Shown: positions 1 to 4,723, counted from the stretch's first letter. The stretch is DNA of 4,723 nt from a virus (IMGVR_UViG_3300029721_000076); one strand, 5' to 3'. A program made the numbers and translations. The notes: generated by a model not told the origin, from the sequence alone.

Positions 1-135
1 CGGACTTCGGGGGAAAAACGAGTATTTTTAGTCATCCTGTTTACCTCTTTCTCAGGAAGTTTAGTCTCCAGGATTCCCGGGGCGGTTCAGTATGGCGAGA
101 ACGCAGGTTATCTGGCTGAAAGAGGGGGTAATTAA
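1..135 (+). CDS. 3' end of upstream nin-region ORF (partial, product unknown)
   Basis: Frame 1 is open from the window edge to TAA at 133-135 (…GSLVSRIPGAVQYGENAGYLAERGGN*), ending 3 nt before the rusA GTG. GAGGGGG at 122-128 would serve as the rusA RBS. An alternative 16-codon frame-2 ORF (ATG 92 to TGA 140-142, [16 protein letters not shown]) overlaps the rusA start as GTGA, so the true frame is ambiguous. Confidence 0.3.
   Translation, partial: RTSGEKRVFLVILFTSFSGSLVSRIPGAVQYGENAGYLAERGGN
65..90. repeat. Left copy of a 26-nt imperfect inverted repeat (partner 4644-4669)
   Basis: TCTCCAGGATTCCCGGGGCGGTTCAG here versus the reverse complement of 4644-4669, TCTCCAGGAAACCCGGGGCGGTTCAG: 24 of 26 identical. 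Confidence 0.7.
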
Positions 136-138
136 GGC

Positions 139-501
139 GTGAATACTTACCACATCACACTACCCTGGCCGCCGAGCAATAACCGCTACTACCGCCATAA
201 TCGAGGGCGCACGCACATCAGCGCAGAAGGGCAGGCATACCGCGATAACGTCGCCCGAATCATTAAAGGCTCAATGCTGGATATCGGTCTGGCTATGCCT
301 GTGAAAATCCGCATTGAGTGCCACATGCCGGATCGCCGTCGCCGTGACCTGGATAATCTACAAAAAGCCTCTTTTGACGCACTCACCAAAGCAGGTTTCT
401 GGCTGGATGATGCTCAGGTCGTTGATTACCGCGTTGTGAAGATGCCTGTTACCAAAGGTGGGAGGCTGGAACTGACCATCACCGAAATGGGGAATGAATG
501 A
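139..501 (+). CDS. rusA: Crossover junction endodeoxyribonuclease RusA (Holliday junction resolvase)
   Basis: 120-aa [29 protein letters not shown]…[11 protein letters not shown], recognised as the RusA family of lambdoid prophage DLP12. GTG start at 139 preceded by GAGGGGG; stop TGA at 499-501. Confidence 0.92.
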
Positions 502-638
502 TGTTTGAGTTTTATATGGCAGAACTTCTTCGCCACCGCTGGGGGCATCTGCGCTTATATCGTTTCCCCGGTTCTGTTTTGACCGATTACCGAATACTGA
601 AGAATTACGCCAAAACCCTGACAGGAGCAGGAGTATGA
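498..638 (+). CDS. ylcG: Small DLP12-type prophage protein YlcG (46 aa)
   Basis: ORF not in the supplied track (below its length cutoff). ATGATG at 498-503 overlaps the rusA stop (ATGA). Translation [46 protein letters not shown], stop TGA at 636-638. Position between rusA and Q matches the known ylcG locus. Confidence 0.5.
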
Positions 639-723
639 AGTCAGAGATAACAATCAACTAATACTGTTTTGTTGATTTTTGCTTGTAATTGGCGTTCTGG
701 TCTGATTTTTGTGGAGTAAGTTG

Positions 724-1107
724 ATGCGTGATATTCAGATGGTTCTTGAGCGTTGGGGAGCGTGGGCGGCTAATAATCATGAAGATGTGACCTGGTCGTC
801 CATTGCCGCCGGTTTTAAGGGATTAATTCCTTCAAAAGTAAAATCTCGCCCGCAATGTTGTGACGATGACGCTATGATCATTTGCGGGTGCATGGCCCGT
901 CTGAAAAAGAACAACAGCGATTTGCACGATTTATTAGTAGATTATTATGTAGTCGGTATGACATTCATGTCACTGGCAGGTAAGCATTGCTGCTCTGATG
1001 GTTATATCGGGAAAAGGTTACAGAAGGCTGAGGGCATAATTGAAGGGATGTTAATGGCATTAGATATCCAGTTAGAGATGGATATCGTTGTTAATAACTC
1101 TAATTAA
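724..1107 (+). CDS. quuD: Late-gene antiterminator Q (phage 82-type)
   Basis: [27 protein letters not shown]…[14 protein letters not shown] (127 aa from ATG 724), recognised as 82-type Q / QuuD. GGAG at 713-716 lies 7 nt upstream of ATG 724. The track's 709 start is a TTG and less likely. Stop TAA at 1105-1107. Confidence 0.9.
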
Positions 1108-1124
1108 TATGCCAATTGTTTACT

Positions 1125-1158
1125 AAAAATTATTAAAAATGGGGCGTTGAGACGCCCC
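1125..1158 (-). terminator. Candidate intrinsic terminator for the nmpC transcript
   Basis: Stem GGGGCG (1141-1146) / CGCCCC (1153-1158) with 6-nt loop. On the minus strand it is followed by ATTTTTAATAATTTTT (complement of 1125-1140). About 140 nt downstream of the nmpC stop. Confidence 0.4.
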
Positions 1159-1246
1159 CAAAAATAAAGGGTAATATATAACAGAAGGTTTATATAGTTA
1201 GAAGCAAGGTTGTGCTTCTAAAGGAAGTGGCTTGAGGGAGCCACTT

Positions 1247-1288
1247 ATATGTTGGGGAGGCAACGCCTCCCGCAACATATCTTTTTCG
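1247..1288 (+). terminator. Candidate intrinsic terminator downstream of Q (possible tR'-like)
   Basis: Long imperfect hairpin: 1247-1260 pairs with 1266-1280 (about 14 bp, one bulged G, 5-nt loop caacg, GC-rich core GGGGAGG/CCTCCC), followed immediately by CTTTTTCG at 1281-1288 on the + strand. No U-tract on the minus strand. Confidence 0.55.
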
Positions 1289-1296
1289 TAATCAGA

Positions 1297-2379
1297 TTAG
1301 AACTGGTAAACCAGACCTACAGCGACGATGTCGTCGGTATCAATATCAGCTGTTTTGGTAAACTTACTATCGTCAATTAAGTTGATTTTGTAATCAACAA
1401 AAGTGGACATGTTTTTATTAAAGTAGTAAGTAGCACCGACATCGACATACTTGACTAAGTCTCGGTCACCATGAACACCAAGGTCTTTACCTTTTGACTG
1501 AAGGTAAGCAACAGATGGGCGCAGACCGAAGTCAAACTGATATTGTGCTACTGCTTCAAAGTTTTGTGCTTTGTTTGCAATATGGTTATTACCAAAAACG
1601 GTCATATTCTGAGTTTCAGAATATGTGGTAGCCAGATAGATATTGTTCGCATCATATTTCAGGCCTGCAGCCCATACTTCCGCATTTTTGCCGGAGGCAT
1701 TGAATTTGCTCTTACCATAGGCGACCTGACCGTCAGTGCGATCTGATTTAGCATAGGTTGCACCCACGCCGAATCCTTCATACTCATAAGTAGTGGAGAA
1801 ACCGAAACCATCACCATTGGCTTCAGTTACGTCAGTGCGGTCATTTTTACCCTGATACTGAGCAGCAAAGTTCAGGCCATCGACCAGACCAAAGAAGTCG
1901 TTGTTACGATAAGTTGCAACACCAGTAGTGCGACCAGTCATGAACACATCTGTTTGGGTCCAGGTATCACCACCGAATTCTGGCAGAACGTCAGTCCACG
2001 CACCGATGTCGTATGCTACACCGTAGTTACGGCCGTAATCGATTGAGCCGTAATCACCAAATTTCAGGCCTGCAAATGCAAGACGGGTTTTGTCTTTGGA
2101 AGAACCTTGAGATTCAGCGCGGTTGCCTTTGAATTCATATTCCCACTGACCGAAACCAGTCAGTTGATCGTTGATTTGGGTTTCACCTTTGAAGCCAAGA
2201 CGGGCATAAGTAGTATCACCATCATCTGCATCATTAGAGGAGAAGTAGTGCTTAGCATTAACTTTCCCGTACAGATCCAGCTTGTTACTGTCTTTATTAT
2301 AAATTTCAGCTGCCTGAGCAGACATCGCCATCAGTACTGATGCAGCTACAGCAGAAATTGCCACTGTTAATTTTTTCAT
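1297..2379 (-). CDS. nmpC: General outer-membrane porin, NmpC/OmpD family (OmpC/OmpF/PhoE superfamily), apparently intact
   Basis: 360-aa product [23 protein letters not shown]|[17 protein letters not shown]… ending …[12 protein letters not shown]. It has a typical signal peptide, the classic porin N-terminus and a C-terminal Phe. Start ATG at 2379 (complement of CAT 2377-2379) with AAAGGG upstream. The track's longer 380-aa start adds an unlikely 20-aa extension before the signal peptide. Confidence 0.92.
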
Positions 2380-2470
2380 CGTGAGCCCTTTTTTTGAACT
2401 ATTATTAAAAAATGATGTCACTGCGCGATAAATATTCATCTAATCAATGTGATTATTTCAAGATGTAAGT
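2380..2470 (-). promoter_or_regulatory. Putative nmpC 5' UTR / promoter region with candidate CRP half-site
   Basis: AT-rich sequence directly upstream of the nmpC ATG. It contains AATGTGAT (TGTGA at 2449-2453), matching one CRP half-site; the second half-site is weak. No unambiguous -10/-35 pair could be fixed by eye. Confidence 0.3.
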
Positions 2471-2658
2471 TTTGGTTTCTCGTTTGATTTGTGAAGTAGA
2501 TCTCTATTTTTATCTGAACTTTTTTCTATCGAATCCTATTCATGGCTCTTGGCTGAATAAAAATAAATCTATTAGCCAATTTATATTAATGGCTGTTATT
2601 TATAAGTGCTCTATAATTTGAAGGTTTAATTTAAATCGGCTAAAAATAACGCTGGAAA

Positions 2659-2680
2659 TTATTTGTTGGTTATTTGTTGA
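2659..2680. repeat. Tandem direct repeat of an 11-mer (TTATTTGTTGG / TTATTTGTTGA)
   Basis: Two adjacent copies, 10/11 identical, inside the AT-rich ORF-free region. Confidence 0.6.
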
Positions 2681-2806
2681 GATTTGCTTATGTATTTGTA
2701 GTGGTGTTTTCAATACTCGGTAGCATTCTCGCAAATATCATTTAGTGGTTTACGTACGTAAAAAATTGGTTATGCTGTTAAGAGTGGTTACTTCGTCACA
2801 CAGCTT

Positions 2807-2840
2807 AAACCCGCCGTCGAGCGGGTTTTTCCATTTTTTG
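2807..2840 (+). terminator. Candidate intrinsic terminator upstream of the lysis cassette
   Basis: Stem AAACCCGC (2807-2814) / GCGGGTTT (2821-2828) with loop CGTCGA, followed by TTCCATTTTTTG (2829-2840). The minus-strand side has no U-tract. No + strand CDS lies upstream of it. Confidence 0.5.
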
Positions 2841-2951
2841 AGTCTCGATATTAGCTGATAACCCAATACCTGAGTTATTCACTGACTCCGAGTCTGTTAC
2901 GTTTCGTAGTATTCCCTCAATTTACACCCGCTTTGTCTGCGAGGTGGGGTT

Positions 2952-3167
2952 ATGAAATCCATGGATAAGTTAACAACGGGTGTCGCCTATGGCACCTCAG
3001 CAGGTAGTGCCGGGTACTGGTTTTTACAGCTGCTAGATAAAGTCACGCCCTCACAGTGGGCGGCAATTGGAGTGCTGGGTAGCCTGGTATTTGGCCTGCT
3101 GACGTACCTGACAAACCTTTATTTCAAGATTAAAGAAGATAAGCGCAAGGCTGCGAGAGGTGAATAA
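2952..3167 (+). CDS. essD: Class II holin (pinholin, phage 21 S-type) with dual-start motif
   Basis: 71-aa [34 protein letters not shown]…[13 protein letters not shown]. Met1 and Met4 (ATG 2952 and 2961) form the S21 antiholin/holin dual-start pattern. Two hydrophobic segments are present. RBS GAGGTGG at 2941-2947. Confidence 0.9.
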
Positions 3168-3664
3168 TGCCTCCATCATTACGAAAAGCCGTTGCTGCTG
3201 CTATTGGTGGCGGAGCAATTGCTATAGCATCAGTGTTAATTACTGGCCCAAGTGGTAACGATGGTCTGGAAGGTGTCAGCTACATACCATACAAAGATAT
3301 TGTTGGTGTATGGACTGTATGTCACGGGCATACAGGAAAAGACATCATGCTCGGTAAAACGTATACCAAAGCAGAATGCAAAGCACTCTTGAATAAAGAC
3401 CTTGCCACTGTCGCCAGACAAATTAACCCGTACATCAAAGTCGATATACCGGAAACAACGCGCGGCGCTCTTTACTCATTCGTTTACAACGTGGGTGCTG
3501 GCAATTTCAGAACATCGACGCTTCTTCGCAAAATAAACCAGGGCGATATCAAAGGCGCATGTGATCAGCTACGTCGCTGGACATATGCTGGCGGTAAGCA
3601 ATGGAAAGGTCTCATGACTCGTCGTGAGATTGAGCGTGAAATCTGTTTGTGGGGTCAGCAATGA
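3167..3664 (+). CDS. rrrD: SAR endolysin (phage 21 R-type lysozyme with N-terminal signal-arrest-release domain)
   Basis: 165-aa [42 protein letters not shown]… with a Gly/Ala-rich weakly hydrophobic N-terminal segment and a lysozyme-like body. The start overlaps the holin stop (TAATG). Confidence 0.92.
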
Positions 3665-4122
3665 ACAGAGTAACCGCGATTATCTCCGCTCTGGTTATCT
3701 GCATCATCGTCTGCCTGTCATGGGCTGTTAATCATTACCGTGATAACGCCATTACCTACAAAGCCCAGCGCGACAAAAATGCCAGAGAACTGAAGCTGGC
3801 GAACGCGGCAATTACTGACATGCAGATGCGTCAGCGTGATGTTGCTGCGCTCGATGCAAAATACACGAAGGAGTTAGCTGATGCGAAAGCTGAAAATGAT
3901 GCTCTGCGTGATGATGTTGCCGCTGGTCGTCGTCGGTTGCACATCAAAGCAGTCTGTCAGTCAGTGCGTGAAGCCACCACCGCCTCCGGCGTGGATAATG
4001 CAGCCTCCCCCCGACTGGCAGACACCGCTGAACGGGATTATTTCACCCTCAGAGAGAGGCTGATCACTATGCAAAAACAACTGGAAGGAACCCAGAAGTA
4101 TATTAATGAGCAGTGCAGATAG
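3661..4122 (+). CDS. rzpD: Rz-type inner-membrane spanin (i-spanin)
   Basis: 153-aa product from ATG 3661 ([23 protein letters not shown]…KYINEQCR) with an N-terminal transmembrane segment followed by a charged, helix-prone region. The start overlaps the endolysin stop (ATGA). The track's 3649 start is a non-ATG extension. Confidence 0.88.
3881..4063 (+). CDS. rzoD: Rz1-type outer-membrane lipoprotein spanin (o-spanin), embedded in rzpD
   Basis: 60-aa ORF wholly inside rzpD in another frame: [20 protein letters not shown]|TSKQ… with a lipobox (VVGC) and proline-rich mature part (PPPPPAW…PPPDW), the hallmark of Rz1. Confidence 0.85.
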
Positions 4123-4153
4123 AGCTGCCCATATCGATGGGCAACTCATGCAA

Positions 4154-4447
4154 TTATTGTGAGCAATACACACGCGCTTCCAGCGGAGTATAAATGCCTA
4201 AAGTAATAAAACCGAGAAATCCATTTACGAATGTTTGCTGGGTTTCTGTTTTAACAACATTTTCTGCGCCGCCACAAATTTTGGCTGCATCAACAGTTTT
4301 CTCCTGTCCAATTCCCGAAACGAAGAAATGATGGGTGATGGTTTCCTTTGGTGTTACTGCTGTCGGTTTGTTTCCAACAGTAAACGTCTGTTGAGCACAT
4401 CCTGTAATAAGCATTGCCAGAGCGGCAGAAAACAACATTTTTTTCAT
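4154..4447 (-). CDS. borD: Bor family lipoprotein (serum-resistance protein, Iss homologue)
   Basis: 97-aa product from ATG 4447: MKKMLFSAALAMLITGC|AQQTFTVGNKP…EARVYCSQ with a lipoprotein signal peptide and lipobox LITGC. AGGA RBS upstream on the minus strand. The track's 113-aa version is an unlikely upstream extension. Confidence 0.9.
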   Translation of the reverse strand: MKKMLFSAALAMLITGCAQQTFTVGNKPTAVTPKETITHHFFVSGIGQEKTVDAAKICGGAENVVKTETQQTFVNGFLGFITLGIYTPLEARVYCSQ

Positions 4448-4563
4448 CTTATTATCCTGCATTGTTAAAAACGGCAGAATCCTATGTGACAACAATTAAA
4501 CGATAGTTAAATGGATTGATGAAAATTAAAACTATATAGGTGGATGCTCAGCCTATTGGAGGA

Positions 4564-4571
4564 GGGGGGGG
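4564..4571. repeat. Homopolymeric G8 tract (C8 on minus strand) in the borD upstream intergenic region
   Basis: GGAGGGGGGGGCAC read directly from the sequence; lies between the right-edge ORF stop and the borD start. Confidence 0.85.
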
Positions 4572-4604
4572 CACTCAGAATCCTGTGGAATGAAATAAAC
4601 CGCT

Positions 4605-4723
4605 CTATCTGTCCATTACCCTTTTAGCTGCGCTGTATCGTCGCTGAACCGCCCCGGGTTTCCTGGAGAGTATTTTATCTGTGAACTCAGGCTGCCAGAT
4701 CATCGTTTCCGATGGAAGCATAA
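4605..4723 (-). CDS. Partial ORF at right edge (ybcV-position gene, product unknown)
   Basis: This is the only minus-strand frame open at the edge: …MLPSETMIWQPEFTDKILSRKPGAVQRRYSAAKRVMDR*, stop TAG (complement of 4605-4607). The ATG at 4721 may be internal, so the gene probably continues beyond the window. Confidence 0.3.
   Translation of the reverse strand, partial: MLPSETMIWQPEFTDKILSRKPGAVQRRYSAAKRVMDR
4644..4669. repeat. Right copy of the 26-nt imperfect inverted repeat (partner 65-90)
   Basis: Reverse complement matches 65-90 at 24/26 positions; similarity decays outside the core. Confidence 0.7.

Follow-up and report, generated by a model that had tools for sequence, protein, structure and literature searches.

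Hairpins between Q and a reversed porin gene in a DLP12/PA-2-type prophage: a probable termination and 3′-UTR zone of a moron

Examples of morons in lambdoid phages are bor and lom in lambda, stx in Stx phages and lc in PA-2; the moron, as Juhala/Hendrix reportedly defined it in 2000, is an extra gene with its own promoter and terminator, located between genes that are adjacent in related phages. Two further described systems are close to the locus studied here. One is the pR′-QBE-pause-tR′ cassette of the Q21/933W type (Yin 2019; Sy 2020) and the other is the set of overlapping bidirectional termination sites between convergent genes of E. coli, seen by SEnd-seq (Ju et al. 2019, as relayed in bioRxiv 10.1101/2022.10.23.513370). 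We analysed a stretch of viral DNA of 4,723 nt (IMGVR_UViG_3300029721_000076), referred to here as the window, in which a cluster of four hairpins (H1 to H4) occupies positions 1108 to 1296. We consider the cluster to be the termination and 3′-UTR zone of a reversed porin moron lying between Q and pR′, with a probability of roughly three in four. The hairpin zone is real and conserved but ordinary, and embodies no new principle.

The window represents the part of a DLP12/PA-2-type lambdoid prophage that serves late control and lysis. Its plus strand carries rusA (139 to 501), ylcG (498 to 638) and the gene of the Q antiterminator (724 to 1107; quuD type, Q21/933W family; PF06530, E 7.6e-54). 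The porin gene nmpC/lc (1297 to 2379; PF00267, E 1e-150) sits on the minus strand; it is intact in the window and interrupted by IS5 in K-12. The holin gene essD (2952 to 3167), the endolysin gene rrrD (3167 to 3664), the spanin genes rzpD/rzoD and, on the minus strand, bor/iss also belong to the gene content. RefSeq annotates quuD at the equivalent K-12 coordinates and a porin in the VR50 equivalent. The segment 1108 to 1296 corresponds exactly to the gap that separates the stop codons of the convergent genes Q (+) and nmpC (−). Positions 1100 to 1300 are 100% identical to E. coli K-12 MG1655, and positions 1090 to 1310, which include the last 14 nt of the porin gene, match the 1986 record of phage PA-2 lc (J02580) at 100% identity. 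A 43-aa open reading frame (1249 to 1380, +) was rejected as a gene; it overlaps H4 and antisense nmpC, and its annotation in phage 434B is only ‘disrupted hypothetical protein’.

In related phages pR′ is found close behind Q, about 30 to 45 nt after the Q stop codon in loci L011, L012 and L014-L020 and in Stx phages, and about 140 nt after it in one relative from C. amalonaticus (L013). The hairpin cluster is absent from L011-L020 and from the Stx phages. Since pR′ directly follows Q in the relatives, the stretch from about 1086 to 2743 is an insertion in this lineage. It is a moron between Q and pR′, comprising the last Q codons, the hairpins, reversed nmpC and the promoter region of nmpC. 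The flanking Q and pR′ are adjacent in related phages, and the insertion has both its own terminator (H1) and its own promoter. The nmpC promoter upstream of the gene has been shown experimentally (PMC11677980), and the PA-2 lc record carries annotated CRP sites. Like other lambdoid morons, nmpC/lc brings its own promoter region and terminator, is absent where Q abuts pR′ and serves as a conversion gene expressed by the prophage. Unlike stx, which lies downstream of pR′/tR′ and is Q-dependent, it is placed upstream of pR′ in the opposite orientation. We also note that the last seven or so codons of Q (IVVNNSN plus stop, 1086 to 1107) are unlike those of all porin-less relatives; the left-hand joint of the module thus falls within the 3′ end of Q and provides the Q stop codon.

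An inverted-repeat search located perfect arms at 1141-1147/1152-1158 (H1), 1198-1206/1213-1221 (H2) and 1225-1232/1239-1246 (H3), and a composite stem with one bulged G at 1247-1261/1265-1280 (H4). Plus-strand folding energies are −12.5, −9.7, −12.4 and −20.8 kcal/mol for H1 to H4, respectively; each hairpin has a z between −4.0 and −6.0 against dinucleotide shuffles and values for the minus strand are similar. Folded as a whole, the 189 nt of 1108 to 1296 reach −65.5 kcal/mol on the plus strand (shuffles −41.9 ± 4.0, z −5.9) and −65.1 kcal/mol on the minus strand (z −7.4), a stability matched by 0 of 200 shuffles. H2 (1198 to 1221; 8-9 bp, 1198/1199 to 1220/1221, with a 6-nt loop) and H3 (1225 to 1246; 8-9 bp) have a U-tract on neither strand. 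The A/T-rich spacer between H1 and H2 (1159 to 1197) is nearly invariant among variants and holds no promoter-like site. It contains a fifth, A/T hairpin (1175 to 1196) with a T-rich tail on the minus strand and no stable stem, whose −1.2 kcal/mol is negligible.

The two outer hairpins differ from the inner pair in their tails. The RNA just past H1 reads AUUUUUAAUAAUUUUU on the minus strand as against CAAAAAUAAA on the plus strand, where the flanks are A-runs; just past H4 it reads CUUUUUCGU on the plus strand as against AAGUGG on the minus strand. Among H1 to H4 only these two tails are T-rich, scoring 2.21 for H1(−) and 2.13 for H4(+) compared with 2.47 for tR′, and the remaining orientations score 1.0 or less. 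A d'Aubenton-Carafa-style terminator d-score, in an uncalibrated form, was negative even for tR′, so only its ranking is meaningful. A sequence-only reading of this DNA had described four stem-loops in 1108 to 1296 and a U-tract confined to the minus strand for the first and to the plus strand for the last. All four are present and stable on both strands when folded, and the asymmetry of the tails is as described. The positions given for H1, H3 and H4 agree with ours, while H2 is slightly longer than the 1200 to 1219 assigned to it.

For a measure of conservation, 96 loci were reduced to 21 distinct sequences which, together with the window, gave 22 variants at 88.6-100% identity. Variable positions number 8 of 90 in the stems and 39 of 99 outside them (Fisher p = 1.3e-6). 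The cluster occurs in 2510 of 5426 complete E. coli genomes, and this prevalence, together with the selective conservation of the stems, argues that it is not a chance arrangement. The H1 loop varies (TGAG, TGAA, GTCA, GGAA, TGCA) around a stem and minus-strand U-tract that are almost invariant. The plus-strand T-tract of H4 is the least conserved terminator feature, with 3-5 T among the variants and 5 T in the window. A covariation test on the stems of the 22 variants found no pair changed on both sides; compensatory double substitutions are missing because the variants are too close to one another. Wobble-type changes in the stems favour neither strand consistently, and one H2 variant (1217 T>C) keeps a G.U pair in the minus-strand RNA only. 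A search of IMG/VR for the porin returned only copies 99-100% identical. An apparent locus with Q and H1 only (H50/L006) was discarded as a mere IS5-family insertion or deletion. The stretch 1161 to 1197, between H1 and H2, is near-invariant in the 22 variants, including the one at 88.6% identity; neither stable structure nor a promoter-like site accounts for its constancy.

The assignment of H1 (1125 to 1158, minus strand) as the intrinsic terminator of the porin transcript, backed by Rho and keeping leftward transcription out of Q, is well supported. The stem (1158-1152/1147-1141) has 7 bp, 6 of them G-C, closes a 4-nt loop and is followed immediately 3′ by a U-tract at 1140 to 1125, the canonical stem-plus-U-tract arrangement; H1 is also the top element in a terminator scan. 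Window positions correspond to K-12 positions minus 573232, which places the curated minus-strand Term-seq 3′ ends of K-12 at 574367/574366 (Adams 2021, PMC7815308) at window 1135/1134. Position 1135 is the fifth U, 6 nt beyond the H1 stem, and the in vivo 3′ end thus falls within the U-tract. The proposal that H1 terminates nmpC on the minus strand is borne out by this end, by the strand on which the U-tract lies and by the rank of H1 in the scan. A further minus-strand end in K-12, fairly abundant, maps at 574476 (Adams 2021, PMC7815308), equivalent to window 1244. It lies 3 nt beyond the H4 stem on the strand where H4 has no U-tract, and could represent a processing or exonuclease stop, or termination independent of a U-tract. 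The 1244 end supports an additional role of H4 as a stable 3′ structure on the minus-strand RNA. The K-12 ends come from the nmpC::IS5 allele, and the RNAs mapped there are not intact porin mRNA.

Rho acts just beyond H1. The Rho termination region in K-12, which is antisense to the 3′ end of quuD, peaks at 574331(−) (Adams 2021, PMC7815308); this is equivalent to window 1099 and lies 36 nt past the H1-associated end at 1135. Without bicyclomycin (BCM) coverage drops there from 285 to 24, with BCM from 445 to 362 (score 9.66, p 3e-36; PMC7815308). Most minus-strand coverage beyond H1 is thus regained with BCM, which implies either that H1 is leaky in vivo or that part of the 1135 ends is left by exonucleases trimming back to the hairpin after Rho termination. 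With the drug, antisense coverage of quuD in K-12 is about 15 times higher.

On the plus strand H4 is the only one of the four hairpins that is terminator-like (1247 to 1289; bulged stem of 15 bp, −20.8 kcal/mol, then CTTTTTCGT). We infer that it is a moderate terminator which guards the porin gene against unmodified transcription running rightwards out of Q. The stem has an A/U-rich base, and the tail, with 5 U in the window, has only 3-4 U in many variants; this short, variable T-tract together with the A/U-rich base means that plus-strand termination may be weak. The K-12 Term-seq tables hold no plus-strand 3′ end between 572350 and 578444, a range that covers both H4 and tR′. This may reflect low rightward transcription, quuD being silent in the cryptic prophage, or RNAs too short to be recorded. 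In a study in which the rrnB terminator was put into the nmpC/quuD spacer, IS5 transposition, the sole readout, was unchanged, which the authors took to mean that transcription arriving from quuD is already stopped by intrinsic terminators (Zhang et al., PMC11677980). The suggestion that H4 ends transcripts leaving Q agrees with the hairpin and its short, plus-only U-tract, and finds no counterpart among the K-12 Term-seq ends. Of the suggested overlapping 3′ ends, those of the minus strand are mapped at 1135 and 1244 and that of the plus strand, at about 1286-1290, is predicted. If H4(+) terminates, the two RNAs would overlap by about 150 nt at their 3′ ends, each transcript crossing the hairpin of the other.

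The bidirectional termination sites of E. coli share with this locus two convergent genes, hairpin sequence in a zone that both transcripts would cross and a predicted overlap of 3′ ends, of which one arm is confirmed here by Term-seq. There the two directions share one hairpin, whereas here two orientation-specific elements of hairpin plus U-tract stand about 100 bp apart with two hairpins between them. The present locus differs also in that its plus-strand end is predicted only and in that Rho provides a backup on the minus strand.

These observations can be combined in a model of the zone. In the lysogen the porin would be transcribed leftwards from its own promoter; the mRNA would cross a structured 3′ UTR of about 160 nt (H4, H3 and H2 on the minus strand) and stop at H1 with its U5 tract. 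H1 would keep most of this transcription from running antisense into Q, with Rho catching the leak-through in K-12. H4(+) is the best candidate stop for unmodified rightward transcription from Q, ahead of antisense porin. H2 and H3 are probably accessory 3′-UTR hairpins acting as barriers to exonucleases and, together with H4, would probably also serve as protective structures at the 3′ end of the porin mRNA. Insulation is the likely purpose of the terminator arrangement. In a functional phage during lytic growth, N-modified polymerase from pR would be expected, by analogy, to continue past H4 and antisense through nmpC. The expectation that N-modified polymerase ignores H4 comes from lambda biology.

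The porin 3′ UTR might instead yield a regulatory RNA, either an Hfq-type small RNA ending at H1 or a cis-antisense partner of the 3′ end of Q mRNA that is cleaved as double-stranded RNA. There are two discrete, fairly abundant minus-strand ends (1244 and 1135), and between them an unstructured, A/U-rich, near-invariant 38 nt (1161 to 1197) is followed by a U-rich stretch, a terminator hairpin and a U-tail, a layout resembling that of Hfq-binding small RNAs; leaders in prophage late regions are moreover known sources of small RNAs (StxS; PMC7547250). A search of the whole window against Rfam at E ≤ 1, however, returned nothing in 1108 to 1296, the sole nearby match being a weak one to Trp_leader over the tR′ hairpin, which we regard as spurious. 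The literature search found no paper that ties nmpC to a small RNA from its 3′ UTR, and the conservation of 1161 to 1197 is measured on closely related sequences, in which it may be due to hitch-hiking. We consider a regulatory RNA improbable, at about the level of an outside chance. Were it true, a small RNA or an overlap of about 150 nt of double-stranded RNA would tie a lysogenic-conversion gene to the lysis switch, and the overlap might couple porin expression to Q levels.

Slightly less probable still is that the minus-strand ends are made mainly by Rho, with H1 and H4 being mere exonuclease stops and not terminators. The strength of the Rho signal at window 1099, the recovery of most downstream coverage in bicyclomycin and the lack of a U-tract at the 1244 end all agree with such an origin. 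Against this, H1 has every canonical feature of an intrinsic terminator, the mapped 3′ end is on the fifth U, 6 nt after the stem, and the minus-strand U-tract is nearly invariant.

We think it very unlikely that the palindromes act as DNA, whether as a recombination site or mosaic joint, a protein site or the remnant of a mobile repeat, and that termination is incidental. It is true that four different palindromes fall within 140 bp, exactly where a mosaic boundary marks the left edge of the porin module. The hairpins, however, have no sequence in common and all of the 36 matching phage records flank the cluster with the 3′ end of Q and the 3′ end of the porin gene. The placement of the U-tracts and the mapped RNA 3′ ends also fit a role at the level of RNA.

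The late promoter is found on the far side of the porin gene. A signature consisting of TTTACGTACGTAAA, N16, TATGCT, TAAGAGTGGTTAC and a hairpin with T-tract occurs once in the window, at 2749 to 2838 between nmpC and the holin gene. Its pR′ (TTTACG-N16-TATGCT; 2749 to 2776, +) corresponds in alignment to the ‘putative late promoter’ that is annotated in VT2-Sakai, phi24B and Ss-VASD. The palindrome TTTACGTACGTAAA (2749 to 2762, +) overlaps the −35 hexamer and is a probable Q-binding element. Downstream come a conserved initial transcribed region (2779 to 2806, +; beginning TAAGAGTGGTTAC), with a presumed −10-like pause element, and a tR′-like terminator (2807 to 2838, +) with an 8-bp stem and a T-tract, which is called by the terminator scan, folds at −11.5 kcal/mol and precedes essD (2952). 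When the window was searched with up to 3 mismatches, TTTACGTACGTAAA was found only at 2749 to 2762 and TAAGAGTGGTTAC only at 2779 to 2791, beside one chance match at 3 mismatches on the minus strand (3670 to 3682). In a BLAST comparison of the nmpC-essD spacer with phages, 2748 to 2830 matched the region just after Q in about 300 Stx phages; their counterpart is annotated ‘putative late promoter’, ‘putative Q-utilization’ and ‘rho-independent terminator’ (VT2-Sakai, phi24B, Ss-VASD). The Stx-phage-type pR′ region, in turn, matches the window only at 2748 to 2838.

Q homologue loci were taken from a second E. coli type, Shigella, Citrobacter, Trabulsiella, Pantoea, Providencia and Xenorhabdus; here the unit starts about 30-45 nt behind the Q stop, or about 140 nt behind it in C. 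amalonaticus. In the 11-locus alignment the −35 hexamer TTTACG is invariant and sits inside the palindrome TTTACG-TA/AT-CGTAAA; a 16-nt spacer, a TAT..T −10 hexamer and an invariant TAAGAGT block at the transcript start follow. Most of the 11 loci have a hairpin and T-run in the same position, which differ in sequence and keep their pairing through compensatory pairs. A literal search of papers for the conserved motifs gave unrelated matches only. The location of the −35 within a perfect palindrome (TTTACG-TA-CGTAAA) suggests, from its symmetry, recognition by a symmetric Q dimer, although the Q21 binding element is described as a direct repeat. In 933W-type phages and in C. amalonaticus the centre of the palindrome is AT, not TA, with the symmetry intact.

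The start of pR′ transcription has been mapped by dRNA-seq in the homologous Sp5 promoter (Sy 2020, PMC7547250), and by alignment to it the start here would be near window 2783. A Q-loaded polymerase starting at about 2783 moves rightwards and so never reads antisense nmpC. Under the moron reading Q would load at 2749 to 2806 and drive rightward transcription into essD-rrrD-rzpD, with no action in the hairpin zone; a Q-type antiterminator is stated to control the DLP12 essD lysis operon (Rueggeberg 2013, as cited in PMC7918800). In K-12 Term-seq no 3′ end was found at the position expected for tR′ (57728x).

Within 1108 to 1296, by comparison, a promoter scan found no sigma-70 promoter-like site, and there are 0 copies of either conserved block at up to 3 mismatches. 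The segment has no similarity to any annotated pR′ nor to any Q locus without a porin; its BLAST matches are confined to porin-carrying loci. That 1108 to 1296 is the pR′/qut/tR′ unit, with Q-modified polymerase passing H4 into antisense nmpC, as the sequence-only reading had suggested and as the adjacency of pR′ and Q in relatives and the resemblance of H4 to a plus-strand terminator might lead one to expect, can be dismissed as extremely improbable, since the segment lacks promoter, late-promoter blocks and any similarity to pR′ or to porin-less loci and the real unit at 2749 to 2838 points to the holin gene, away from nmpC.

The same reading had taken phage 82 for comparison. The Q of the window is 77% identical to that of VT2-Sakai and matches the PDB structures of Q21 (6P18/6JNX) at E 1e-7. 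Judged by these similarities it is a Q of the Q21/933W family, not Q82, and the two families have been set apart (Yin 2019, bioRxiv 10.1101/651190). With a Q of the Q21/933W type, phage 82 is the wrong comparator. The window copy of the Q21/933W cassette (2749 to 2838) has approximately 77-89% identity to Stx-phage and other enterobacterial versions. It differs in lying outside the interval 1108 to 1296, about 1.64 kb from Q in this lineage, and in having a single terminator ahead of the holin gene; in Sp5 the transcripts run to a second terminator, 258 nt from the start, which is tR′ in that phage (Sy 2020, PMC7547250). No second terminator was found before essD in the window. In Sp5 (locus L003) the hairpin and T-tract homologous to 2807 to 2838 lie at 662 to 684 and are not the mapped transcript end.

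DLP12/PA-2-type prophages, which nearly half of the complete E. coli genomes contain, thus have their late promoter beyond the reversed porin and not beside Q. It follows that work on the Q-dependent lysis cassette should use 2700 to 2951 together with a Q of the Q21/933W family; the Q-proximal spacer and Q82 are the wrong choices for such experiments. The zone between Q and nmpC exemplifies the insulation of a moron by an intrinsic terminator with Rho behind it and, probably, by a second terminator facing the other way.

Some features of the wider locus may be added. In a porin-less E. coli/Shigella relative (L011, 3580 to 3660) a tRNA-like sequence follows pR′/tR′, as in Stx phages. The left flank of the prophage fragment is a 42-nt IS3-family terminal inverted repeat at 49 to 90, with its partner at 4644 to 4685. 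The repeat, with 1 to 48 and 4686 to 4723, marks the termini of two IS3-family copies that point the same way and bracket a 4.55-kb rusA-Q-nmpC-lysis-bor fragment; homology to phages and to VR50 spans exactly 90 to 4644. The window is contiguous in none of the complete E. coli genomes or plasmids of the collections searched. The 4.55-kb fragment may be a composite-transposon-like remnant, severed from the early region of the prophage. On the minus strand an ATG at 45 to 43 starts MTKNTRFSPEVR.
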